Shown in pieces: positions 24,255 to 36,363 of a DNA stretch of 64,000 nucleotides. The notes under the pieces are model-generated. The model was not told the DNA's origin and did not search any database. It saw only the letters and a list, made by a program, of their open reading frames with translations. Location: NCBI GenBank assembly GCA_963674785.1, contig OY771555.1:1280001-1344000 (forward strand), read 5' to 3'. Each line of letters starts with the position of its first letter. Positions within the stretch are counted from its first letter, which is position 1. The stretch comes from Caldisericia bacterium. GTDB taxonomy: Bacteria > Caldisericota > Caldisericia > JAAYUI01. The position numbers and the translations under genes were made by a program.

Positions 24255-26030
24255 CTATTCTCCTCTTCTTGTTCTTTCCTCTATCTCTGATCTGAGCCTC
24301 TGCTTCTCTACAAGCTCAGCATAATAACCATTCTTTGCAATCAATTCTTCATGTGTTCCATCTTCAGTAATACATCCACCCCTAATAACAATTATTCTAT
24401 CACAAAGAGTCATAATACTTACTCTATGGGCAATAATAACCGCTGTCTTACCCTCTAAGGTTGGAGCAATAGACTCAATAATTGCAGACTCAGTATGTGT
24501 ATCAACTGCTGATAGTGGATCATCAAATATCATAATTGGTGGATCAGCAAGAACAGCCCTTGAAATAGCAACCCTCTGTCTTTGTCCACCAGAAAGAGTA
24601 ACTCCTCTTTCCCCAATTACAGTTTCATATCCTTCATCAAACCCCATTATCTCATCATGAAGTTGAATCTTTTTTGCAACTTCTTCAATCTCTCCTCTTG
24701 TTGCCTCTGGTTTAATAAATGATATATTCTCAGCAATAGTTGAACTAAATAAGAACGCATCCTGTGGAACATATCCAATCGATGATCTTAGTTTTCCAAG
24801 ATCCCAATCTCTCACATCAACACCATCAATCTTTACAGAACCAGAAGCTACATCCCATGTCCTAAGTAACATCTTAGTAAATGAACTCTTACCAGCACCA
24901 ACGGGACCAACTATACCAATTACCTGACCCTTAGGTACTTTCAAACTTAAATCCTCAACTGAAATCGAAGAATCATCATACCTCAATGTAGCATCTGTTA
25001 TCTCAATATCTCCCCTCACTGTTTCTGGGGTGTAGGGATCAGAAGGTGATGAAACATCGGGTTTGATTTTGAGGATATCCCATATTCTACCAATCGAGAC
25101 TTTCGACCTTTGGTAGAGATTTATGATCCATCCAAGTCCGATCATTGGCCATATCAACATAACAACATAAACGAGGAACCCAGAGAGCTGACCGATTGTT
25201 ATGAATTTTGACATAAAGAGGTATCCACCGAACCAGATCACGCCGATGATTGGGATCCAGATAGAAAGTGAAAGTAATGGCCACCAAATAGCCCATATCT
25301 TGTTTATTGGTTTTACGGTATCAACGTATCCATCCATGAGTTCAGAAAATCTTTTGGATTCTTTGTCTCCCTGAGCATATGACTTGATTGTTCTTGCTCC
25401 AGAGAGGTTTTCTTGAATCCTATTGGAAACTCCATCGAAGTAGTGCTGAATTCTTAGGAAATGTTTGTGAATTTTTTTCCCAAGTACGTTTTCTATCAGC
25501 AAAACAAATGGCAGGAACACTAAAATGCTAAGTGAAAGCTGCCATGATATTGTAAACATGAAAACGAACGCCACCATTGTTCTGAGAAACGAACTTGGCG
25601 CAATTACTGAACCAAATGAAATAAACCTCATAATTGTCATCACGTCGGATGACGCTCTGTTCATGATTTCTCCGGTTTTCATTTTCCCGAAGAAGCTATC
25701 TGGAAGAATCATTAGTTTTTCGTATATCTTATTTCTAAGGTCATCTGAAACTTTTCTTCCCACAATGTGAATTGTATATCTGCATACGAAAAATATACTT
25801 ACTTTTGCAACCAAGATAATGACAGTCCAGATTAGAACCCAAAGGATAATTTGATTTGCTTCACTCTGAGGAATTTCTCCCTTTAATCCCATGTTTGCAG
25901 CATCAATGCTTTTTGCAATAAGCATCGGTATAATCATGTCAATTGCAGAGACGAATAATCCAAAGATTGATAAAACAAAACGTCCAAGATAGGGTCTAAG
26001 TAATTCGTAATATTGTTTGTATAATGACAT
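24255..26030 (-). CDS. Heterodimeric ABC exporter half, degenerate Walker B subunit, paralog 1
   Basis: Essentially the same NBD as 22420..24222 with a diverged TMD. Confidence 0.92.
   Translation of the reverse strand: MSLYKQYYELLRPYLGRFVLSIFGLFVSAIDMIIPMLIAKSIDAANMGLKGEIPQSEANQIILWVLIWTVIILVAKVSIFFVCRYTIHIVGRKVSDDLRNKIYEKLMILPDSFFGKMKTGEIMNRASSDVMTIMRFISFGSVIAPSSFLRTMVAFVFMFTISWQLSLSILVFLPFVLLIENVLGKKIHKHFLRIQHYFDGVSNRIQENLSGARTIKSYAQGDKESKRFSELMDGYVDTVKPINKIWAIWWPLLSLSIWIPIIGVIWFGGYLFMSKFITIGQLSGFLVYVVMLIWPMIGLGWIINLYQRSKVSIGRIWDILKIKPDVSSPSDPYTPETVRGDIEITDATLRYDDSSISVEDLSLKVPKGQVIGIVGPVGAGKSSFTKMLLRTWDVASGSVKIDGVDVRDWDLGKLRSSIGYVPQDAFLFSSTIAENISFIKPEATRGEIEEVAKKIQLHDEIMGFDEGYETVIGERGVTLSGGQRQRVAISRAVLADPPIMIFDDPLSAVDTHTESAIIESIAPTLEGKTAVIIAHRVSIMTLCDRIIVIRGGCITEDGTHEELIAKNGYYAELVEKQRLRSEIEERTRRGE
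24295..25037. repeat. Direct repeat copy 2 (NBD-coding tract)
   Basis: Offset 1823 bp from copy 1. Confidence 0.95.
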
Positions 26031-26037
26031 GAACGGC

Positions 26038-26066
26038 AGTATACAGAAATGTTACCAATAAGTCAA
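26038..26066 (-). promoter_or_regulatory. Leaderless-type sigma70 promoter of the ABC operon
   Basis: TTGACT-N17-TATACT-N7-ATG(26030); no SD. Confidence 0.65.
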
Positions 26067-26131
26067 CCGATGACTATTGATAAAGATGTAAAAATGTGCT
26101 AACATGCACGGAGAAACTAGGAGGTTTAAAG

Positions 26132-26794
26132 ATGGCAAATATGTTCAAAAGAATCAAAGACATTTTAGCAAGCAATGTATCAGATTGGCTCTCAAACATG
26201 GAAGACCCAGAAAAAATGCTTCCATACAAGATTGACGAAATGAAAACTGAGCTTGTAAAGGCAACCGATGCAACAGCAGAGGCTATGGCAATCCAGAGAC
26301 AGACTGAGATGAGGCTTGCAGATATTCAGGCAGACATCAAGAAGTACAACTTTGCCGCAGAAAAAGCTGCACAGAAGGGTAATGATGATCTTGCCAGAAA
26401 ATGCCTTGGCAGAGTGATTACACTTGAAAAACAGGAAAGTGCAAATATCAACTCTCTTGAAACCCAGGAAACAACTACAGAGAAACTCAAAGAGATCATC
26501 GAAGCACTCAAGGCAAAAATTGAGGAAGCCGAGATTAGAATGGATGAGCTTGTAGCAAGAAACAAAGCTGCCAAGGCTCAGGAAAAAGTTACAAAAGTAA
26601 TGGGCAACATTAATGTTGGCGATCTCGGAACAACATTCGATGATCTTGAAAAGAAAGTTATCAAACGTGAGCAGAAGGCTGCCGCACTCGCCGAACTTGG
26701 TGGATCAAAAGCGGATTCTCTTGACGATGAGATTGCTGAATACTCAGAAGAAGACGAAATTACAAAAAGACTTAATTCACTCAAAGGTGCATAA
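26132..26794 (+). CDS. pspA: PspA/IM30 family protein
   Basis: MFKRIKDIL...MEDPEKML, long coiled coil; SD AGGAGG before ATG 26132. Confidence 0.88.
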   Translation: MANMFKRIKDILASNVSDWLSNMEDPEKMLPYKIDEMKTELVKATDATAEAMAIQRQTEMRLADIQADIKKYNFAAEKAAQKGNDDLARKCLGRVITLEKQESANINSLETQETTTEKLKEIIEALKAKIEEAEIRMDELVARNKAAKAQEKVTKVMGNINVGDLGTTFDDLEKKVIKREQKAAALAELGGSKADSLDDEIAEYSEEDEITKRLNSLKGA

Positions 26795-27189
26795 TGGGCG
26801 GTCTCTGGTATCTCCTGATTGCTGTTTTGGCTGGAATCGTCAGTGGTGTTATTATTGTCTTATTTAAGCGTGCAACAGCTGGAGTCTCAAAAAGTCAAAA
26901 CATTTCAAGATTGAAAATGGTTGAGAAACGCTGGTATAACTTCTCTGAAGACCTCAAACTTGTAAAAGACCTGGGAACAGATCTTGGAGATAAGTTTCCA
27001 AATGCAACCCCTGAAAGGGTTGAAAAAATAAAGGAACTTGCAAGAAAATTTGAGGGAGCTTGGTTCAGAGGAAAAGACGAATCAACCGGCGTTAAAACAA
27101 GTACCAACATGATGGAGACAATGACTACCTATGAGTATGAACGAATTCTAGAGAAACTTGAGGAAAATCTGGACAAGATATTCAAATAG
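26794..27189 (+). CDS. Single-TM hypothetical protein coupled to pspA
   Basis: TAATG stop/start overlap; N-terminal hydrophobic helix. Confidence 0.75.
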   Translation: MGGLWYLLIAVLAGIVSGVIIVLFKRATAGVSKSQNISRLKMVEKRWYNFSEDLKLVKDLGTDLGDKFPNATPERVEKIKELARKFEGAWFRGKDESTGVKTSTNMMETMTTYEYERILEKLEENLDKIFK

Positions 27190-27216
27190 ATTCCAATCAT
27201 ATTAATTGTGAAGCTG

Positions 27217-27251
27217 AAAAATGGCGTGTCGTAATGGCACGCCATTTTTTT
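27217..27251 (+). terminator. Intrinsic terminator
   Basis: AAAAATGGCGTGTC-GTAAT-GGCACGCCATTTTTTT. Confidence 0.85.
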
Positions 27252-27416
27252 ATTGGATAAGGTTTAGCTAGTGGTGTTTCCGAATTATTATTGGATTGAG
27301 ATTTTGGATAGAGAGAGGGAGAAAAAAAGGAACCAAAACAAGAAGATGGGACTTTCATTCTTACGTTATTGTGTGTGTTTGAAATGTGAAAGGAGTTACA
27401 CAGTATAAAACAAAAG

Positions 27417-27448
27417 AAAAACCCCGCCCAAGAAACAGACGGGGTTTT
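27417..27448 (-). terminator. Intrinsic terminator of 27478..28686
   Basis: AAAAACCCCG...CGGGGTTTT, preceded by an A-run on the + strand. Confidence 0.8.
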
Positions 27449-27477
27449 GGATATTAATTTAATAATGCAAACTACTA

Positions 27478-28686
27478 TTATCTATTGGTTTCCCAGACAA
27501 TACTTCCATCAGTGTCAATACAGATTGTTTTAAGCTCATCGTTTACTTTTCTTGCTGTGAAATAAAGCTTATCGCCATCAACAGCTGGTTTACATGAAAT
27601 ATAGTTAGGAGTTATGTTCTTCTTCCAAAGCTCACTAAGGTCTTCGTCAACGCAGATGATGTTTCCGGTATCTGTTCCGAAAATGATTTTTCCATCAACC
27701 TCAACTGGGCTGGAATTTACATATGCGTCTCTGCTTGAGAGAACATAGTGACCAAGTTGTTTGAATGTTCCATCTTCAAACTTATAAAGCCCATTTGTCT
27801 CAGTTTTGTCGCTCTGGCAACCAGCATAGATTGCACCATTAAAGGCTAGTGGTGTTGAGCGTGCCCATCTGACTTTATGAGACCATTCGGCATTATGTAT
27901 TTCAAAACCGTCTCCAGCCTTTGTTCCGTCGGCTGCATTTACTTTGTAAAGGTGGCTGTCATAGCTTCCGAAATAGATGTGTCCGTTATAGAGATTGAGG
28001 TTGCACTCGATTGCTGCACCATTTCTGTTTGCTGCTGAATCGGATTCATTCCATGGGTATGTGCCTGATCCCTCTGTCTGGAATGGCTTTTTCCATTTGC
28101 TGGATTTTTTTCCATTTTTGAGCTGGATGATTTCAACCTGACCAAAGAATGATGCTGCAAGGACACAATCATCAACGATAACTGGTCTGCTTACTGACCA
28201 TCCACCAAACCAATAGTTCCAAAGGAAAGTGCCATCGGTTTTGTAGGCTTCAATTGTCCCTTTACCAGCATTGATTCCGGTTGTTGGAACGATAACATAT
28301 CCGTCCTGGACGAGTGGCTGACCAAAAACACCCTTTGTGATTGGCATTCTCCATTCGATTGCACCTGTTTTTGCATCGATTTTGTGGAGGTGTCTGTATG
28401 GGAAGATTTCTGTTCCCAATACTGCATAAACTTTACCAGTTGATGCCTCAAGCTCTGGCGAAGCATAAACTCTATCTGTTGTTTCGATCTTCCAGACCTG
28501 TTTGCCATCGGATGCGTTGAGACCATAAAGTCCATCTGTGCCAATAGCGGTAATGACGATTCCGTCATAAATGGCTGGTGAAATTGACTGATAATATCCG
28601 CCTGCGAATGTTGGTGCACCTGTTGGTACAACTACAGAGATAGCGACGAGTGCAAGCAAAGTTACTGCAACTAGAAATTTCTTCAT
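27478..28686 (-). CDS. Secreted PQQ-like beta-propeller protein
   Basis: Signal peptide MKKFLVAV; SPAIYDG, SSPVEVDG, Trp-docking repeats; SD AAGGAGG. Confidence 0.85.
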   Translation of the reverse strand: MKKFLVAVTLLALVAISVVVPTGAPTFAGGYYQSISPAIYDGIVITAIGTDGLYGLNASDGKQVWKIETTDRVYASPELEASTGKVYAVLGTEIFPYRHLHKIDAKTGAIEWRMPITKGVFGQPLVQDGYVIVPTTGINAGKGTIEAYKTDGTFLWNYWFGGWSVSRPVIVDDCVLAASFFGQVEIIQLKNGKKSSKWKKPFQTEGSGTYPWNESDSAANRNGAAIECNLNLYNGHIYFGSYDSHLYKVNAADGTKAGDGFEIHNAEWSHKVRWARSTPLAFNGAIYAGCQSDKTETNGLYKFEDGTFKQLGHYVLSSRDAYVNSSPVEVDGKIIFGTDTGNIICVDEDLSELWKKNITPNYISCKPAVDGDKLYFTARKVNDELKTICIDTDGSIVWETNR

Positions 28687-28845
28687 AGTAGTCCTCCTTA
28701 ACATGAAAGAGATTTTAGATTGTTACTGACTCCAGTCAAGGTAACTGGATGGTAAGAAATGAATAAAAATTGGTAAAATCGAAGCGTAACGATACTTGTG
28801 AATTTTTCCTTGTTTTTTCTTCCAAATTTGATGATAGTTTCCGAT

Positions 28846-30228
28846 ATGAGTGAACTACCAGGATACAAAGGAAAAGCGTTAGAGGTTTTATCAAGATTTT
28901 CAGCAAGAGTATGGGCGAAAGTCGAGATCGAAACTGATAGAGGAATATTTGTTGGAATTATTCTTCCAAGGGCTGAGCAGGCGGATGACCTTCATGTGGT
29001 CTTAAAGCTTATCACCGGATACAACATCGGAATTGCTGTCTCTAGCATCACGAATATCAAAGAGCTTGGTTATCGTGAAGCAAAATACAAAATCCCTGAA
29101 CAGGATTTCCCATTTGATGCTAAGAAACGAAATGTCACACTTCTTGGAACCGGTGGAACGATTGCGTCAAGACTTGATTATCGAACTGGTGCTGTTATTC
29201 CAGCTTTCAGTCCGGGTGAACTATATGGTGCTGTCCCAGAACTCGCAGATATTTGCAACCTGAAAACTGAAAAACTTTTTGGAGTTTTCTCAGAGAACAT
29301 GAGCTGGGAACAATACCGAATTCTGGCTGAAGCCATTGGTCGTGAAATTAACCAGGGTGCAGATGGAATCGTTATTGGTCATGGAACAGACACAATGCAC
29401 CACACAGCAGCTGCTCTTTCATATATGGTTCAGGATTCTCCAGTACCAATCGTCATGGTTGGTTCACAAAGATCATCTGATAGGCCATCATCTGATGCTG
29501 CATTCAACCTTCAGTGTGCTTGCAACACTGCAGCAAACGGTCAGATTGCAGAAACGCTTGTTTGCATGTTTGGGCCAACATCCGATTCATATAACCTTCT
29601 TCATCGTGGAACAAGAGTTCGCAAAATGCACAGTTCATATCGTTCAACCTTCAGAACCCTCAGTGATGTTCCAGTTGGAATGTGTACCCCTGACAAAGTC
29701 ACACCAATCAAAAAAGTTTTCAAACACAGAAGAAAAGACAGAAACGTAAAGATTGACACAGCATATGACGATCGTGTGACGATTGTTTATTATTACCCAG
29801 GAATGAAACCAGACATAATCGATTCACTTGTTAAGCGTGGTTATAAGGGTATCGTTATCGCTGGCACAGGTCTTGGTCATGTCAACAAGCCACTCTATGA
29901 GCCACTCACAAGAGCGGTCAATGCTGGTGTACATGTCTATATGACAGTCCAGACCCTTTGGGGATTTGCACAGATGTATGTCTATGATACCGGTCGCGAC
30001 CTTCTTGAGATGGGTGTTCAGTCAGCTGGCAACATGACCCCAGAGGCAGCATACATCAAGCTTGGTTGGGCATTGGGTCACTCACACGACAAAGACGAAG
30101 TACATAAGCTCATGGTAGAGGATATCATAAATGATGAGATCACGGAGCGTGAGCCACCTGATGGGTATCTCGTATTCCAAGGTGGACTTCCTGAAATTGA
30201 AGACTACTTGAGTAAGCATATCAGATAA
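28846..30228 (+). CDS. gatD: Glu-tRNA(Gln) amidotransferase subunit D (archaeal type)
   Basis: GatD N-domain HVVLKLITGYNIG; TGGTIASRLDYRTGAV, HGTDTM, GSQRSSDRPSSD, RVRKMHSS. Confidence 0.93.
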   Translation: MSELPGYKGKALEVLSRFSARVWAKVEIETDRGIFVGIILPRAEQADDLHVVLKLITGYNIGIAVSSITNIKELGYREAKYKIPEQDFPFDAKKRNVTLLGTGGTIASRLDYRTGAVIPAFSPGELYGAVPELADICNLKTEKLFGVFSENMSWEQYRILAEAIGREINQGADGIVIGHGTDTMHHTAAALSYMVQDSPVPIVMVGSQRSSDRPSSDAAFNLQCACNTAANGQIAETLVCMFGPTSDSYNLLHRGTRVRKMHSSYRSTFRTLSDVPVGMCTPDKVTPIKKVFKHRRKDRNVKIDTAYDDRVTIVYYYPGMKPDIIDSLVKRGYKGIVIAGTGLGHVNKPLYEPLTRAVNAGVHVYMTVQTLWGFAQMYVYDTGRDLLEMGVQSAGNMTPEAAYIKLGWALGHSHDKDEVHKLMVEDIINDEITEREPPDGYLVFQGGLPEIEDYLSKHIR

Positions 30229-30265
30229 CACCAAGACTCACTAAAACTAAATATTAGAAACTATA

Positions 30266-30301
30266 TAATGCCATAAGATTAGAAATAGTCTTGTGGCATT
30301 A
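30266..30301 (+). terminator. 15-bp hairpin downstream of gatD
   Basis: TAATGCCATAAGATT-agaaat-AGTCTTGTGGCATTA; both mismatches form G-U pairs in + strand RNA. Confidence 0.55.
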
Positions 30302-30500
30302 GTTGTATATTGGGATAATTATTTTCCTATGTATAGCAATATATTACATTAATTAAGACTATTAATACAAATAAAAATATTTAAGTAATATGTATACTTT
30401 TGATAATTAGTATTATCAAGATATTTGTATAAAAATAGACATTAAAAACGTTATTACACATCTAAAATATTTATTATGCGTAAATAGATTATATTACAGT

Positions 30501-31895
30501 CTATTGTTCTATTAGCATGCTGAAATATTTATTATGGTTTTCAAATAGCTCTATACTATTTGAGTTGTTTTCTCTAAGTTCTGCTAAGCGGGTATTGATA
30601 TTCTGTTCTTGGTAATTTCTTTCTCCGGTTACTGAGATTTTTGCTGCTCTACTAAAAAATTTAAGGTACTCAGTTACCATTATCGAATCTATTTTGTCAA
30701 GTTCGAGTCGTTTGAATGCTTCTTCTCCCCAATCTGAAATTATCAAGCCATTCCTGTTTGAAAAAAGTAAGCGTACATCCCTAAGTTCGGCAAAAACCTT
30801 CGGATAGTAATAATAAAGCCAGCATAAACCCCAGAATTCGTTCCAGTTTACTTTCTCTTCGAAGAGAGATGCTCCAAATCTAAAAATGTTTATCAAGTTT
30901 TTGGCTTCTCTAATAGTTTTTACAGTTTCGACTGATAATTCGAACTCCTTAGATTTCGAAAACTTTTTTGCTTCTTGCAGTTTTTCTGAAGTAGATATTG
31001 TGTTAAAAGAAGGCTTATGTTTAAACTGTAAGTTGACTATATGTCTAGTTAGGAGCTTAGATAGGTTGCTTGTCGTTACTTTTGGCATATATGTTGGAAA
31101 TGTGATCATTTTTCTAATATAGTCTAATCCATTTCCACCAACTTCTTTTTTTATATTATTTGCCGTTGTGATTTGGTCATATGCTACAACAGTGTTTATG
31201 TTAGGTAAATCAGTCACCAATCTTATAACCTTTAACATTGTGAGGATCTCTTTTGATTGTAGTCTGTCCATGTCATCAATCAGGATTACTACCTTTCGAC
31301 TGAAGCTTCTAAGATTTCTTTCAAGCCTGTTTTTAATATCAAAAAAATCTTCTGGCATCTTTCCATATAAAAATGATTGAACACAATCAATAACTAGTTC
31401 AGGTATCTTAAATACAGGGTTGATTGTTGAGATTGCACCCATTACTTTCCCAAGTTTAATCAAATCATCACTTATATTAGGATTGCTTGTACCAATGGAT
31501 TTTGCGATTCTGTTTAGAAATGCTTCAATAATTTCCTTTTCACTACCAAAAAACCAGGGATCAAATTCAATCACAATTGGCATTTGTTTTCTCAGATTCC
31601 TAATGTATTTCTTCTTTCCTTGGCAACCTAGCTTTTTGAATTTTTCTCTGTTGCGAAAAGAATAAAGGAAGAACTTTTCGCTTTTAAGATAGCTTTTTAC
31701 AAAACCTAACATGCTAGATTTTCCAGAACCCCAAGGACCTGCAATTCCAATTGAATAATTACCACTATCAGTTGGGTTACAAGCGATTTTTGTAATCCTC
31801 TTTGCGTGGTTTTTAAATTTAAACAAATCATTTTTTGGATCACTGATTGGTTTGTCATCCTCATAGCCTAACTTCATTTTTGCTTTTTCAGTCAT
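30501..31895 (-). CDS. KAP family P-loop NTPase
   Basis: IAGPWGSGKSS, IEFDPW, VVILIDDMDRL, DYIRKMI; SD GGAGGGTG; visibly more AT-rich than its flanks. Confidence 0.88.
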   Translation of the reverse strand: MTEKAKMKLGYEDDKPISDPKNDLFKFKNHAKRITKIACNPTDSGNYSIGIAGPWGSGKSSMLGFVKSYLKSEKFFLYSFRNREKFKKLGCQGKKKYIRNLRKQMPIVIEFDPWFFGSEKEIIEAFLNRIAKSIGTSNPNISDDLIKLGKVMGAISTINPVFKIPELVIDCVQSFLYGKMPEDFFDIKNRLERNLRSFSRKVVILIDDMDRLQSKEILTMLKVIRLVTDLPNINTVVAYDQITTANNIKKEVGGNGLDYIRKMITFPTYMPKVTTSNLSKLLTRHIVNLQFKHKPSFNTISTSEKLQEAKKFSKSKEFELSVETVKTIREAKNLINIFRFGASLFEEKVNWNEFWGLCWLYYYYPKVFAELRDVRLLFSNRNGLIISDWGEEAFKRLELDKIDSIMVTEYLKFFSRAAKISVTGERNYQEQNINTRLAELRENNSNSIELFENHNKYFSMLIEQ

Positions 31896-31987
31896 TTCAC
31901 CCTCCAGCAAATAAATGTACAATAACATGATTGCTCACGCAATATTGGTAACATTTTCACAATTTCTGTCGTACTATAAGAAAAAAC

Positions 31988-33178
31988 ATGGAGAAGTTTA
32001 GAAAAATGAAAAAACTAATAGTATTTTTTCTGGTATCTTCTTTGATAGTTGCCTTTGGGATTCCAGTGGCACAAAACACAAAAGCAGAGACAGTTTGGAA
32101 GATCGGAGACAGAGTCGTCCCTGGCCCACTTCCGCCAAATTTCAAATCCCCTGCGCCAGAGCTTGAAAGCAGGCTTGATCTCTCTTATGGTGACCATGAA
32201 CTTCAAAAAGTTGATTTTTATAGGCCAGTAGAGTGTGAGGGTCAAACTCTTCCTCTTGCTATCTACATCCATGGTGGTGGGTTCACCGGTGGTGACAAAG
32301 GAAGGGCATTTCAAAAAGCCGAATGCACTATGTTTTTTCAGATGGGTTTTGCTGTGGCGTCTGTCAATTACAGACTCGCACCAGATTTTGAAATGCATTA
32401 TCTGATTGAGGACTGCAAGCTTGCCATCAGATATTTAAAAGCAAATGCAAATGATTTGGGGATTGACCCTGAAAGAATCGCAATCTGGGGGACATCAGCG
32501 GGTGGTCACCTTGTAGGAATACTTGGAACAGCAGACGATGATGACGGACTTGAGGGAGAGGGACTTCTTGAGTATTCAAGCAGAGTAAATGCTGTTGTAA
32601 ACCAGTATGGAACGGCTGATTTTACAACGATGTTCAAACAGATTAACACAGAAAGAGCAAAAAAGAACATTCAGGATTTCTTTGGCAAAGAAACTTTTGA
32701 AGAGTGTAAAGATGAAGCAAAAAGAACATCAACTGTCACATATGCGAGCTCTGATGACCCACCAATGCTTATTCAACATGGTGATGCTGACCCTGTGGTT
32801 CCATATGCTCAATCAAGACAGCTCGCAAAGACACTCTTTGAAGCTGATGCTAGCTGTGCACTTGTGAAGGTGAGTAATGGTGGACATGGATTTGGTGCTG
32901 TAGATAAATCAAAGGATGTGGTTCCTGGAAGAGAAACAACAACTTTTCAGTGTGTGGCACATCTTGCAAGATATATTGAGCCAGAAGTGCTTGGTGATTT
33001 GAATCTGGATGGAAAGATTAATCTTGATGATATGTTTGAGCTTGCATCGTTGATTGGTTCCTTGGGAACAGATGAAAATGGAAATTCAGCACCTGAATAT
33101 TGGAATCCACTTGCAGACCTTGTTCCCGATGGGAAAATTGACATCAAAGATTGGGAATTATTTTGGGAGGTATATTAG
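31988..33178 (+). CDS. Secreted alpha/beta hydrolase (HSL/BD-FAE-like esterase) with C-terminal dockerin-like domain
   Basis: Signal peptide; HGGG, GTSAGG, HGDADPVVP, GGHGF; GDLNLDGKINLDD...ADLVPDGKIDIKD. Confidence 0.88.
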   Translation: MEKFRKMKKLIVFFLVSSLIVAFGIPVAQNTKAETVWKIGDRVVPGPLPPNFKSPAPELESRLDLSYGDHELQKVDFYRPVECEGQTLPLAIYIHGGGFTGGDKGRAFQKAECTMFFQMGFAVASVNYRLAPDFEMHYLIEDCKLAIRYLKANANDLGIDPERIAIWGTSAGGHLVGILGTADDDDGLEGEGLLEYSSRVNAVVNQYGTADFTTMFKQINTERAKKNIQDFFGKETFEECKDEAKRTSTVTYASSDDPPMLIQHGDADPVVPYAQSRQLAKTLFEADASCALVKVSNGGHGFGAVDKSKDVVPGRETTTFQCVAHLARYIEPEVLGDLNLDGKINLDDMFELASLIGSLGTDENGNSAPEYWNPLADLVPDGKIDIKDWELFWEVY

Positions 33179-33183
33179 AATTT

Positions 33184-34344
33184 ATGAAGAAATTGATTTC
33201 AATAGCCCTTGTTTTAGTTCTGATTTTTTCTGCAACGTCACTTTTTGCAAAAGAAGAGAAGACCTATAAACTCGGTGACAGAGTTATCCCTGGTCCACTG
33301 CCACCTGATTCCTATGCTGGCATACCAAGATCTGAAAGAAGATTAGATGTGAAGTATGGTGATAAATCTGAATGGCAGGTTTTCGATTTTGCACGTCCTG
33401 AAATATGTGAAGGACAGACAATACCTCTTGTGATATTTTTCCATGGTGATGGTTTTTCACACAAAGTCACAAAGGATGGTGGTTTAAGAAATCCTCCAGC
33501 GATTCAATTTTTGCAACTTGGGTTTGCTGTGGCCTCAGTTGACTATCGAGTTATCGATGATGAGGTGTTTCCAGCTTTGGTTCACGATTGCAAACTTGCT
33601 ATCAGATATTTCAGAAAAAATGCGGAAGAGTTTGGAATAGACCCTGACAGGATTGCTGTTTGGGGAAGCTCGATGGGTGGCTACCTTTCGGCTTTTTTGG
33701 GATACGTGAACGATGATGATGGTTTTGAAGGTGAGGGACTTGAGGATGTTTCAAGTTCCGTTTCGGTGATTGTTGATTATTTTGGCGTAAAAGCTGTTGG
33801 TCGAATTGATACAAAACAAGCGGTACCAAATAGACCTCGATTTGTTGGCGAAGAAGCAGGAACACCAGAGTTTAAGAAAAAAGCATATGAAGCATCACCC
33901 ATAAACTATGTTGATGAAAATGATCCACCGACTCTCATGATTCATGGCGATAAAGACACAAAAGTGAACTATGAACAAAGTGTTTTGTTTGCTCAGAAGA
34001 ATTATGAGTTCGGGAATAATATTGCATTAATTAAGGTAAAAAATGCTGAACATGGTTTTGACCCATCTCCTGCAGATGCTGTTATCTCCCCGGCAAATGA
34101 AGAAATCTGGTTTGCAACAGTTGCCCATATTGCAAGATATGTTGAACCTGAGGTTTTTGGTGACCTGAACCTTGATGGCAGTGTCAACCTCGATGACATG
34201 TTTGAGCTTGCATCATTGATTGGTTCATTGGGAACTGATGAAAATGGAAATTCAGCGCCAGAATATTGGAATCCACTTGCAGACCTTGTTCCTGATGGAA
34301 AAATTGACATCAAAGACTGGAACAAATTTTGGGAGGTTTACTGA
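33184..34344 (+). CDS. Secreted alpha/beta hydrolase paralog with C-terminal dockerin-like domain
   Basis: Signal peptide; HGDG, GSSMGG, HGDKD, AEHGF; nearly the same C-terminal module as the upstream gene. Confidence 0.88.
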   Translation: MKKLISIALVLVLIFSATSLFAKEEKTYKLGDRVIPGPLPPDSYAGIPRSERRLDVKYGDKSEWQVFDFARPEICEGQTIPLVIFFHGDGFSHKVTKDGGLRNPPAIQFLQLGFAVASVDYRVIDDEVFPALVHDCKLAIRYFRKNAEEFGIDPDRIAVWGSSMGGYLSAFLGYVNDDDGFEGEGLEDVSSSVSVIVDYFGVKAVGRIDTKQAVPNRPRFVGEEAGTPEFKKKAYEASPINYVDENDPPTLMIHGDKDTKVNYEQSVLFAQKNYEFGNNIALIKVKNAEHGFDPSPADAVISPANEEIWFATVAHIARYVEPEVFGDLNLDGSVNLDDMFELASLIGSLGTDENGNSAPEYWNPLADLVPDGKIDIKDWNKFWEVY

Positions 34345-34410
34345 AGTTAAAATAATTGAACGATTATCTTGATTGTTGTAACACAAACTCGAATATAGAA
34401 TCTCTTCGAT

Positions 34411-36363
34411 ATGAAAAAAGAGAAACAATTTGATGATATAAATTATTATTCAAGTATTGGGTTTAAGTCAGGTCTTGAAATCCACCAACAATTGGACACA
34501 AAGAAAAAGCTTTTCTGCAGATGTCCGGTGGGATACAGAACAGAAAGGCCTGATGCAAGAATTGTTAGACATATGAGACCAACTCTTTCTGAGATGGGTA
34601 CCTATGATGGTACTGCATTAATGGAGTTCAAAACAAAAAAAGAAGTAAACTATCTCTTATACAGAGATTTTGTTTGCACATATGAGATGGATGATACTCC
34701 ACCATTTCCAGTTAACCCAGAGGCATTGGATTATGCAATTGAAATCGCATTGATGCTCAATTGCCAGTTGGTCGATGAGGTTCATATCACAAGAAAGCAG
34801 TATCTCGATGGTTCAATCCCAACCGGTTTCCAGCGAACAGCCATTGTCGGTGTTGAAGGGTGGATTCCATACAAAGACAGAAAAATAAGAATTCAGCAAC
34901 TCGCAATTGAAGAGGACTCATGTCGTGAGGTCTCGGATATTGGTCACAAAATAACCTTTAAAACTGATAGATTGGGTATCCCTCTAGTGGAGATTGTCAC
35001 ATATCCGGATATGAGAACCCCACACGAGTGTGCTGAGGTTGGAGAGATTCTTGGAAGGCTTCTAAGGGCGTCTGGAAAAGTACGTCGCGGAATGGGTTCA
35101 GCAAGACAGGATGTTAATAGTTCTGTTACGGGTGGCCCACGAATCGAGATAAAGGGTGTACCAAAGACATGGTATATCCCAAGAATGCTCGACACTGAGT
35201 CAAAAAGACATCTGAAACTTCTTGAGATAAGAGACAGGCTCAATAAGAATGGTCTTAAGTACAATGAAAATCTGAATCCAACACTCAGGGAAGAGGAAAG
35301 ACTCAGGGAGTTGGAAAAACTCAAAAAGGGAATTGTTTCTGATGTTACACATCTTCTTGTGGATACATCATTTCCACCGATAAGAGAAGCCATTGGAAGA
35401 AATCAGAATGTTTGGGCGATTAAGCTTGAGCAGTTTGAGGATGTTTTATCAGAAAATGTTCAACCAGATAAAACCTTTGGTGAGGAGTTTGCTGGAAGAA
35501 TAAGGGTCATCGCTTGTCTTGATGGAAAACCAAATATGATTTGGAGATCAGCGGGGAAGCTTTATCCGGGTGATTGGGAAAGAATTACCTCTGAGCTATC
35601 GTCACGACCGAATGATGAGGTAGTTTTGGTTTGGGGTGAAAAGGGTGATCTTGAGGTTGCATCAAACGAGATTTTACTTCGAGCAAATGAAGCAACACTT
35701 GGAATTCCTGAAGAAACAAGACAACATATGCAGGATGGTTATAGAACAGATTTTGAAAGGATTCTTCCTGGACCAGACAGAATGTATCCAGATACTGACT
35801 CTCCACCCGTTAGAATTACTGAAGAGAGAAGAACACGAATTGCAAAGAACCGACCTGAAAGACCATGGGAGAGAGAAGAGAAGTATAACAGTCTAGGAAT
35901 CCATGAATCAGTCGGTTGGAAATTGGCAGCACACCCAAGGGCAACACTTTTTGAAAAACTGCTTGAAGTTGGGTTTGAGCCAAAACTTGCTGCAGAATTG
36001 ATAGTGAACTGGTTAACCCATCTGAGACGCCAAAATAAAGCCTGTCTTGAAAAAGTCCTTACAGATGAAGTGCTGGTTGATGTCATAAGAGTTGCTGTAG
36101 AGAAAAAACTTCCAAAAGAGGCTATCAAAAACGAATTGAATTCACTTGCCTCTGATTGTGATTATAAATTTCAATACCCCGAGCTTGCTGTTGACAAAGA
36201 TATTGAATTTATCATATCTGATGTGCTTGCAAGAGCTGAAAAAATCAAATTTGAATCAATTGATGCGAAAAAACGTTGGGTAAAAGGAAGATCTGTCAGA
36301 TCACTTTATGGAAGAGTGCATGGCAAGATGATTTCTGATTTGATTGATAATAAATTGAACTGA
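34411..36363 (+). CDS. gatE: Glu-tRNA(Gln) amidotransferase subunit E (archaeal type)
   Basis: GLEIHQQL...KLFCRCP, DGSIPTGFQRT, RQDVNSSV, AspRS-like insertion, PGPDRMYPDTD. Confidence 0.93.
   Translation: MKKEKQFDDINYYSSIGFKSGLEIHQQLDTKKKLFCRCPVGYRTERPDARIVRHMRPTLSEMGTYDGTALMEFKTKKEVNYLLYRDFVCTYEMDDTPPFPVNPEALDYAIEIALMLNCQLVDEVHITRKQYLDGSIPTGFQRTAIVGVEGWIPYKDRKIRIQQLAIEEDSCREVSDIGHKITFKTDRLGIPLVEIVTYPDMRTPHECAEVGEILGRLLRASGKVRRGMGSARQDVNSSVTGGPRIEIKGVPKTWYIPRMLDTESKRHLKLLEIRDRLNKNGLKYNENLNPTLREEERLRELEKLKKGIVSDVTHLLVDTSFPPIREAIGRNQNVWAIKLEQFEDVLSENVQPDKTFGEEFAGRIRVIACLDGKPNMIWRSAGKLYPGDWERITSELSSRPNDEVVLVWGEKGDLEVASNEILLRANEATLGIPEETRQHMQDGYRTDFERILPGPDRMYPDTDSPPVRITEERRTRIAKNRPERPWEREEKYNSLGIHESVGWKLAAHPRATLFEKLLEVGFEPKLAAELIVNWLTHLRRQNKACLEKVLTDEVLVDVIRVAVEKKLPKEAIKNELNSLASDCDYKFQYPELAVDKDIEFIISDVLARAEKIKFESIDAKKRWVKGRSVRSLYGRVHGKMISDLIDNKLN

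Follow-up and report, generated by a model that had tools for sequence, protein, structure and literature searches.

The 64,000-nucleotide window analyzed here (bases 1,280,001–1,344,000 of the single Caldisericia contig OY771555.1, which has 2,233,174 bases and 39.1% GC) codes for both subunits of GatDE, a tRNA-dependent amidotransferase described as archaeal. Judged by their sequences, the two genes are true gatD and gatE with all catalytic residues intact, and they belong to a lineage that is separate from the canonical archaeal enzymes and is carried mostly by bacteria with a U1-A72 pair in tRNA-Gln; we name this lineage type II GatDE, as opposed to canonical archaeal GatDE. Public databases already name these bacterial proteins GatE. 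We lean toward reading the window pair as an active second Glu-tRNA(Gln) amidotransferase that would accept the bacterial U1-A72 tRNA-Gln, in a genome that also encodes the bacterial amidotransferase GatCAB.

In passages of earlier papers GatDE is called an archaeal signature protein (Nucleic Acids Research 2008, PMC2330236) and is said to occur exclusively in archaea (Nucleic Acids Research 2010, PMC2811023). The cited portion of a 2022 review likewise has GatDE as now restricted to archaea and all archaea as lacking glutaminyl-tRNA synthetase (GlnRS), and gives the co-evolution of GatDE with A1-U72 tRNA-Gln as the reason that GlnRS was never acquired by archaea (PMC9499178). Our literature search, with subscription journals and supplementary files outside its reach, found no paper describing a bacterial GatDE and none describing an archaeal GlnRS.

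Identity of the gatD and gatE genes

The gatD open reading frame (28798–30228, transcribed rightwards) can begin with a GTG codon, giving 476 residues, or with the ATG at 28846, giving 460. The ATG is the likelier start because the alignment to solved GatD proteins begins there and the frames of relatives code for 459–470 residues; counted from it, the likely gatD start to the gatE stop is exactly the 28846–36363 span of the original prediction. The product exceeds the NCBIfam cut-offs (NF003217, 485.3 bits with a cut-off of 310; TIGR02153, 481.9 bits with a cut-off of 324), and a Pfam GatD_N domain (46.9 bits against 25.7) precedes the N and C domains of Asparaginase. The closest solved chains found with phmmer are 1zq1_A (1.5e-108) and 2d6f_A (7.6e-108). 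The nucleophilic Thr and the Thr-Asp-Lys triad are kept as T121, T197, D198 and K276 (476-residue numbering), placed by aligning them with motifs GTGGT, HGTDT and VRKMH in 2d6f_A, and are intact in all 103 aligned type II GatDs; the corresponding residues of Methanothermobacter thermautotrophicus GatD we take to be T101, T177, D178 and K254. The triad is stated for the canonical enzyme in the cited part of PMC2330236.

GatE consists of a cradle domain, an AspRS-like insertion, a helical domain and a tail, and also lies above its NCBIfam cut-offs (NF003107, 518.5 bits, cut-off 456; TIGR00134, 442.6 bits, cut-off 319.55), with 2d6f_C (2.4e-98) and 1zq1_C (2.9e-97) as phmmer matches. By alignment, H25, E167 and E194 are the Mg ligands His15, Glu157 and Glu184 of M. 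thermautotrophicus GatE, which are described as essential by mutation in a passage of PMC2330236, and all 86 type II rows keep these three residues. The Pfam GatB_N match stretches over residues 20–472 although the model has 277 positions. An AlphaFold2 model from a nine-row alignment is moderate overall (mean predicted local distance difference test score, pLDDT, 65.1; predicted template modeling score 0.54) and was used solely for the fold and for the identity of the inserted domain, residues 270–430, where pLDDT is 72–92. With Foldseek its best matches are 2d6f_D and 1zq1_C (E values of 1.6e-29 for 2d6f and 1.0e-28 for 1zq1), GatB chains reaching 6e-14 and weaker, and there are local matches to the bacterial AspRS chains 7ap4_A, 1efw_A and 4ah6_A over 132–138 columns. 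These matches, together with the pLDDT of the region, confirm at the level of the model an AspRS-like insertion of the right size and in the right place. The tail aligns with other GatE tails and keeps G626, G634, R635 and G638.

The original prediction had read a full-length GatD, with its N-domain and asparaginase motifs, and a full-length GatE with an AspRS-like insertion, and both readings hold. Its concern that the 650-residue protein might group with GatB and its partner with ordinary asparaginases proved groundless, the best GatB model scoring 160.9 bits on GatE with a cut-off of 338. It was also right that the window is bacterial. The host is a bacterium, with a 16S rRNA that reaches 1492.6 bits with the bacterial model as against 1002.8 with the archaeal model, and its genome is a single-contig 2.23 Mb Caldisericia chromosome with an estimated completeness of 92%.

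Distribution, inheritance and genomic setting

A protein search returned GatE relatives from metagenome-assembled genomes (MAGs) of Caldisericia, WOR-3, Zixibacteria, Deltaproteobacteria and Eisenbacteria, whose database entries already bear the name "Glu-tRNA(Gln) amidotransferase subunit GatE". When a single genome from each species was scanned with a nine-sequence alignment as the query, at least 594 GatE relatives were recovered among 600 candidates, and 78 of the best 80 have bacterial titles, some of these MAG labels being possibly unreliable. Hosts of the best 80 loci include Ignavibacteria, Kapabacteria, Bacteroidota, Chlorobiota, Phycisphaerae and other Planctomycetota, Zixibacteria, WOR-3, Stahlbacteria, Aminicenantes, Acidobacteriota, Fermentibacteria, Krumholzibacteria, KSB1, Calditrichota and Myxococcota, and three loci are on closed chromosomes. 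GatD relatives with 61–91% identity are present in 154 of 189 candidates; the best 80 are all bacterial, and the carriers include one closed chromosome from Myxococcota and one single-cell genome from Elusimicrobiota. The caution in the original prediction that other bacteria may carry GatDE was well placed, as many phyla do. When the phylum of one Ignavibacteriales carrier was sampled evenly, type II GatE was present in 13 of 301 genomes.

For phylogenetic analysis, a canonical archaeal set of 120 GatE loci from many archaeal phyla was fetched by GTIRQDLN, a motif present in the solved structures, and type II loci by motifs of their own, so intermediates outside the Thermoplasmatota could be missed; the one unbiased sample is that of the Thermoplasmatota, with 151 genomes drawn evenly. 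GatB proteins from six bacteria formed the outgroup. The rows exclude duplicates, surplus members of the family, three long fused frames, and any frame that scored under 150 bits or was not within 590–720 residues. In a GatB-rooted FastTree phylogeny of 170 rows, 77 rows form a canonical archaeal clade (support 94) and a second clade of 86 rows (support 99) holds all remaining bacterial rows and three from Thermoplasmatota; with the sampled Thermoplasmatota sequences added, giving 197 rows, the second clade grows to 106 (support 99), made up of three Thermoplasmatota groups and 83 bacterial rows. An IQ-TREE phylogeny of 61 rows (LG+C20+F+G4) recovers the canonical clade (95), type II (93) and monophyletic bacteria (81), and places the family of the window as sister to WOR-3 plus Stahlbacteria (98) inside the bacterial group. 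Type II is thus separate from canonical archaeal GatE in three trees (support 93–99 for type II, 94–95 for canonical), and the nearest relatives of the window GatE are bacterial, WOR-3 and Stahlbacteria followed by Zixibacteria and Ignavibacteria. We note that a MAG labeled Limnocylindrales (Chloroflexota; DATHCJ010000022.1) has a canonical GatE nested in Bathyarchaeota, which reflects misbinning or else an independent transfer of recent date.

GatE is present in 140 of the 151 Thermoplasmatota genomes and its scores are discontinuous, with 23 genomes at 645–1088 bits and the rest at or below 496; these 23 are the carriers of type II. Nine of them also have a canonical-range GatE (G168, G056, G098, G095, G107, G078, G152, G172 and G157), and the five of these nine that were checked for GatD each code for two, one adjoining each GatE (e.g. 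L395/L416 and L400/L415); such genomes are predicted to hold two complete GatDE systems. Each of the 12 compared Thermoplasmatota genomes that carry type II GatE has a GatD 59–69% identical to that of the window, and each of the eight canonical-only genomes has one at 36–45% identity. The GatD scores are bimodal (at least 593 bits, or at most 367), and the GatD and GatE sequences co-vary by type.

Within type II, the 61-row tree does not settle how the three groups from Thermoplasmatota branch relative to the bacteria, and an approximately unbiased test does not reject a tree in which type II joins the canonical GatE of Thermoplasmatota (p 0.286). Several directions and ages of the transfer are therefore conceivable: type II may be an ancient Thermoplasmatota paralogue that bacteria received in a single transfer, the transfer may have run the opposite way, or the lineage may be older. 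Taken at face value, the GatB-rooted trees suggest a bolder corollary, in which type II would be the bacterial counterpart of archaeal GatDE and their ancestor would be older than the two domains.

Within the class, 41 genomes including that of the host were sampled, and the family of the window comprises 11 of these, in three genera. GatE above cut-off and GatD are each present in all 11 and missing from every one of the 30 genomes from the other four families, and all keep GatB-like matches. The frames are full-length in ten of the 11 family members; in G001 the gatE match is split in two pieces with an internal TAG, and two further relatives have a single stop within the matched gatE stretch. 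The two genes are far apart in most relatives; the closed genome G002, for example, has one at 1.449 Mb and the other at 1.741 Mb. Where synonymous divergence (dS) is below 1, the ratio of nonsynonymous to synonymous divergence (dN/dS) is 0.032–0.065 for gatE (six pairs) and 0.006–0.042 for gatD (nine pairs), most other pairs being saturated and giving no estimate; both genes are under strong purifying selection in the family. The sequences are best explained by vertical inheritance of the pair within one Caldisericia family, which would have acquired it earlier from other bacteria.

In the window itself gatD and gatE are separated by a KAP-family NTPase gene and two genes coding for BD-FAE esterases (Table 1). 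GC content at gatD and gatE is 0.40–0.43, similar to the rest of the window and matching the genome. The lone low-GC stretch (30001–32000, 0.328) contains most of the KAP NTPase gene and may be a small inserted island; the NTPase has a weak N-terminal match to the defense ATPase QatA (40 bits, cut-off 600).

Table 1. Coordinates of the GatDE genes, the genes between them, and the host AspRS gene
Feature	Position	Strand	Length	Basis or remark
gatD, type II: glutaminase/asparaginase subunit of GatDE (predicted)	28846–30228	+	460 aa	NCBIfam, Pfam, phmmer
KAP-family P-loop NTPase	30501–31928	-		Between gatD and gatE
BD-FAE esterase 1	31988–33178	+		Between gatD and gatE; tandem paralogue of esterase 2
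BD-FAE esterase 2	33151–34344	+		Tandem paralogue; 28-base overlap with esterase 1
gatE, type II: tRNA-binding kinase/amidotransferase subunit (predicted)	34411–36363	+	650 aa	NCBIfam, phmmer, Foldseek
Archaeal-type AspRS	C1:2184092–2185384 of the host genome, outside the window		430 aa

The assembly was compared with Logan contigs of two sequencing runs, X1 and X2, which may be the source sample. One 8141-base piece spans 24984–33124 with no differences to the window, and pieces of 68.5 and 52 kb cover 34263 onward and lie mostly beyond the stretch compared; depth is even at 10.6–12.4, and breaks occur solely at the tandem esterase paralogues. These independent contigs connect gatD with bacterial flanking genes and gatE with at least 52 kb of the contig. 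The short-read assembly graph breaks exactly at the tandem esterases (33095–33126 and 34263–34290). A minor variant is also present in the X1 and X2 contigs at 26371–27011, where about 640 bases, taking in the last part of pspA and the beginning of the frame that follows, are replaced by 13 other letters at a depth of 2.7–5.9 as against about 12.

Pathway genes, tRNA-Gln and relatives of the enzyme

The host genome codes for two proteins with a GatB_N domain, a true GatB (612 bits) and GatE, as well as for GatA (536 bits, cut-off 481) and for GatC, directly upstream of gatA (66.7 bits, cut-off 47.1), and a replacement of the bacterial route by GatDE is not supported. Only one class-Ic synthetase is present, a GluRS of bacterial type (563 bits on gltX_bact), and GlnRS was not found when class-Ic synthetases were searched in this genome of about 92% completeness; the sole GluRS therefore has to charge tRNA-Gln with Glu too. 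The search for glnS, gatCAB and asnS proposed in the original prediction thus recovers the last two and not the first, and its question on the origin of GluRS receives a bacterial answer. The class-IIb enzymes are LysRS, AsnRS and a single AspRS, which is an archaeal-type aspartate--tRNA(Asn) ligase (563 bits, cut-off 353). AsnA was not found in the same roughly 92% complete genome, where the sole AsnB-domain match, at 19.7 bits, is below cut-off. Because the AspRS is of archaeal type, AsnRS and GatCAB are present, and neither AsnA nor AsnB was found, asparagine is probably made on tRNA in this host, as it is in Thermus and Deinococcus. The host needs an amidotransferase for Gln-tRNA(Gln), and probably for asparagine as well, and two candidates are encoded in its genome.

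Both tRNA-Gln genes of the host (CUG and UUG) have U1-A72 with G73, which excludes the archaeal-like acceptor stem that was one of the two possibilities offered in the original prediction; among the 47 host tRNAs, A1-U72 is present only in Trp(cca) and Ser(tga). U1-A72 was also seen in the three tRNA-Gln(UUG) genes recovered from other bacteria with GatDE (Ignavibacteria, Zixibacteria and Caldithrix), and BLAST searches of two further GatDE-bearing bacterial genomes found no tRNA-Gln. In a Thermoplasmatota genome with type II GatDE both tRNA-Gln genes have A1-U72, and one GatDE lineage therefore lives with both pairs. The two tRNA-Glu genes of the host, outside the window at C1:1170192–1170266 and C1:2125330–2125404, begin their acceptor stems with a G1-U72 wobble. 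The G1-C72 pair of tRNA-Glu has been described as an antideterminant for amidotransferases, and the host tRNA-Glu differs from it.

Bacterial GatB is described as reading U1-A72 with a 3-10 turn, at the site of which GatE has a short basic loop, together with a different tail motif (in the cited part of PMC2811023), and canonical GatDE as reading A1-U72 (likewise in part of PMC2330236). The type II loop at the first base pair is of the GatE type, short and basic, two residues shorter than that of GatB and with the consensus [ST]GKVR[RT]G.G..R[QE]DVN, and the tail retains the G/R/G pattern of GatE tails. At nine positions each type is at least 90% conserved and yet the residue differs between the two (T68/A, Y91/V, D95/E, T96/E, I136/N, P137/T, V235/L, N375/G and D461/E), one of the nine falling within the motif used for sampling. 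At strict thresholds no position splits bacterial from Thermoplasmatota type II GatE; relaxed thresholds give four weak candidates (41, 43, 201 and 208), and the window protein departs from the bacterial majority at 43. These alignments suggest that the enzyme either accepts A-U as well as U-A at 1-72 or is adapted in a diffuse way. The second possibility offered in the original prediction, an altered GatE specificity, may thus hold, as may a tolerance of U1-A72, although the sequences bear no clear signature of either.

Canonical archaeal GatDE, as solved for M. thermautotrophicus (2D6F) and Pyrococcus abyssi (1ZQ1), is the best match to the window pair in sequence and fold: the two subunits, their domain order, the GatD Thr and Thr-Asp-Lys residues, the His/Glu/Glu Mg site of GatE, the AspRS-like insertion and the short basic loop are all the same. 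It differs from type II in forming a separate clade, in the nine conserved positions, and in its hosts, which have A1-U72 whereas those of type II are mostly bacteria with U1-A72; Foldseek identity of the window protein to the solved GatE chains is 32–35%. Canonical GatDE is also characterized by archaeal distribution and by being the sole Glu-tRNA(Gln) amidotransferase of its host; in the present host GatCAB is encoded as well, and 78 of the best 80 GatE loci have bacterial titles. Bacterial GatCAB acts on Glu-tRNA(Gln) with U1-A72 and carries out the same overall reaction as is predicted for type II; GatE and GatB are paralogues with the cradle domain and Mg ligands in common, and both systems are present in the host. 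They differ in that the glutaminase of GatCAB is the amidase GatA with GatC and that of GatDE is the asparaginase-family GatD without GatC, and in that GatE, not GatB, bears the insertion domain. The 3-10 turn region with which GatB reads U1-A72, two residues longer, is absent in GatE according to the cited passage of PMC2811023. The Thermoplasmatota type II proteins (e.g. in G046, G168 and G061) belong to the same clade and are likewise found beside another route, with GatE at 480–619 bits by phmmer (the closest four at 1004–1088 bits against the A1 profile) and GatD at the identity to the window given above. They differ in having archaeal hosts with A1-U72 tRNA-Gln, and in having adjacent and divergent gatD and gatE genes, which are unlinked in most Caldisericia relatives.

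A survey of 55 other bacterial assemblies with type II GatDE (5 + 50) shows no link with a missing asparagine synthetase, an AsnB-type domain being present in 39 of the 55, and none with archaeal-type AspRS, present in only two of 30 bacterial carriers. AsnRS is present in 28 of 30 bacterial carriers checked overall and in 22 of 24 without GatB. With these counts, the idea that type II is an Asp-tRNA(Asn) amidotransferase gains no supporting association. The genes next to gatE vary by locus (NadE, AsnA, gatD, an efflux pump and others), with no conserved partner: AsnA adjoins gatE in a Phycisphaerales MAG (L014:10050–11198), the glutamine-dependent NAD synthase NadE does so in Ignavibacteria and Zixibacteria MAGs (L012/L013:6151–7899), and gatE and gatD overlap as an operon in Caldithrix (L017). 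In the Thermoplasmatota genome G046, glnS is directly flanked by tRNA-Gln(CUG) and tRNA-Gln(UUG), both A1-U72, and AsnRS and an archaeal AspRS are encoded as well; the GlnRS-bearing loci are L421 (G046:C60:1531–5457), with L376 and L379, and L419 (G061).

Predicted function and significance

From the identity, integrity, selection, placement, tRNAs and pathway genes described above we infer an activity, a substrate and a division of labor. A GatD dimer would hydrolyze Gln or Asn with its Thr nucleophile and Thr-Asp-Lys triad, and the ammonia would travel by a channel to GatE. There, at the His/Glu/Glu Mg site, the side-chain carboxyl of the Glu on Glu-tRNA(Gln) would be phosphorylated and then amidated to give Gln-tRNA(Gln). 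This chemistry is established for the canonical enzyme and is predicted here from the conserved residues. The substrate must exist in the host, which has a single bacterial-type GluRS and in which GlnRS was not found, and the enzyme must accept U1-A72 because the host tRNA-Gln genes have this pair. The division of labor could resemble that of archaea, with GatDE serving Gln and GatCAB acting mainly on Asp-tRNA(Asn) for asparagine synthesis, which is plausible because neither AsnA nor AsnB was found and the only AspRS is of archaeal type.

Several observations weigh against an active Glu-tRNA(Gln) amidotransferase of this kind, to which we nonetheless give somewhat better than even credence. 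No residue change that would explain a switch from A1-U72 to U1-A72 was found in the GatE alignments, and the tail domain is below the Pfam cut-off (GatB_Yqey, 20.2 bits against 27). GatB is encoded in 31 of the 55 other bacterial carriers (4/5 + 27/50), and of the 24 without it GlnRS exceeds the cut-off in 19 and is represented in one by a contig-end fragment; neither was detected in four (G206, G223, G226 and G231), assemblies whose completeness is not established. Canonical GatDE is present as well in 9 of the 23 Thermoplasmatota carriers, all five type II-only Thermoplasmatota examined have two class-Ic synthetases, and the two that were classified have a GlnRS (TIGR00440, 716 and 745 bits, cut-off 425.8) beside an archaeal GluRS. 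Type II GatDE is clearly the sole route to Gln-tRNA(Gln) in none of the genomes examined, and an accessory or different role would fit this pattern better than a plain Glu-tRNA(Gln) amidotransferase. Type II could then be an active amidotransferase with a physiological substrate other than Glu-tRNA(Gln), such as Asp-tRNA(Asn) for tRNA-dependent Asn synthesis, another acylated tRNA or a non-tRNA carboxylate, which would explain its retention beside complete Gln-tRNA(Gln) routes. We regard this as a serious rival, though less probable than the reading we favor. The always-accessory pattern in bacteria and archaea speaks for it, as do the archaea in which both pairs coexist with each GatD adjoining its own GatE, the nine type-specific positions, the amide-metabolism neighbors NadE and AsnA, and a host without detected AsnA or AsnB; against it, the tRNA elements specific to GatE (short basic loop, insertion domain and G/R/G tail pattern) all appear to be kept, the associations with a lack of asparagine synthetase and with archaeal-type AspRS do not appear, AsnRS is present in nearly all carriers checked for it, and GatCAB could already serve Asn in the host. 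In the cited passages of PMC2330236 and PMC2811023 the GatE insertion domain is said to clash with AspRS. A broader reading, which we hold tentatively and likewise below the one we favor, is that type II is an undescribed class of tRNA-dependent amidotransferase with a role other than essential Gln-tRNA(Gln) synthesis, be it a second substrate or a conditional, regulatory or quality-control function; this would explain strong selection beside GatCAB, GlnRS or canonical GatDE.

The explanations that concern the origin or state of the genes fare much worse than either of these or than the Glu-tRNA(Gln) reading. The cross-domain transfer of the original prediction can be read as a direct and fairly recent move of the canonical system from an archaeon to this bacterium, either replacing the bacterial route or requiring an archaeal-like tRNA-Gln. 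The family is archaeal by textbook accounts (as worded in parts of PMC2330236, PMC2811023 and PMC9499178) and the nearest archaeal relatives, in Thermoplasmatota, have 46–50% identity, but the sister position to WOR-3 and Stahlbacteria within bacteria, inheritance across the family, unremarkable composition at both genes, U1-A72 tRNA-Gln and the retention of GatCAB make it extremely unlikely. In the proposed phylogeny check GatE falls outside the canonical archaeal clade and groups with some Thermoplasmatota in type II; the picture of an isolated archaeal system left in a bacterial host is incorrect in detail. That the genes are degenerating or nonfunctional remnants of an ancient transfer is suggested by the apparent redundancy with GatCAB and by the interrupted gatE of G001 and two other relatives, and is very unlikely given full-length frames in nearly all family members, invariant catalytic residues and dN/dS of at most 0.065. 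An assembly or binning error that placed archaeal DNA in a bacterial contig, the chimera against which read coverage was to be checked, is next to impossible. Mislabeling does occur, as in the unrelated Limnocylindrales-labeled MAG, and no support for it was found at this locus; the genome is one contig, the Logan contigs are independent and flat in depth, with breaks at the esterase paralogues only, and the same genes are present in ten relatives, a single-cell genome and closed bacterial chromosomes (CP070718.1, OY762428.1, OY820579.1 and OY782497.1).

The GlnRS genes in Thermoplasmatota MAGs stand against the statement, in the cited part of the 2022 review, that all archaea are without GlnRS (PMC9499178). 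The label "Glu-tRNA(Gln) amidotransferase" that databases give to the bacterial proteins is best regarded as putative. Against the textbook picture, a whole lineage of intact and selected GatDE is present in bacteria with U1-A72 tRNA-Gln, and type II coexists with canonical GatDE in some archaea and with bona fide GlnRS in others. These genes make several questions testable: how strictly GatDE reads its tRNA's first base pair, why indirect routes are kept beside direct ones, and whether both amidotransferases were ancestral.

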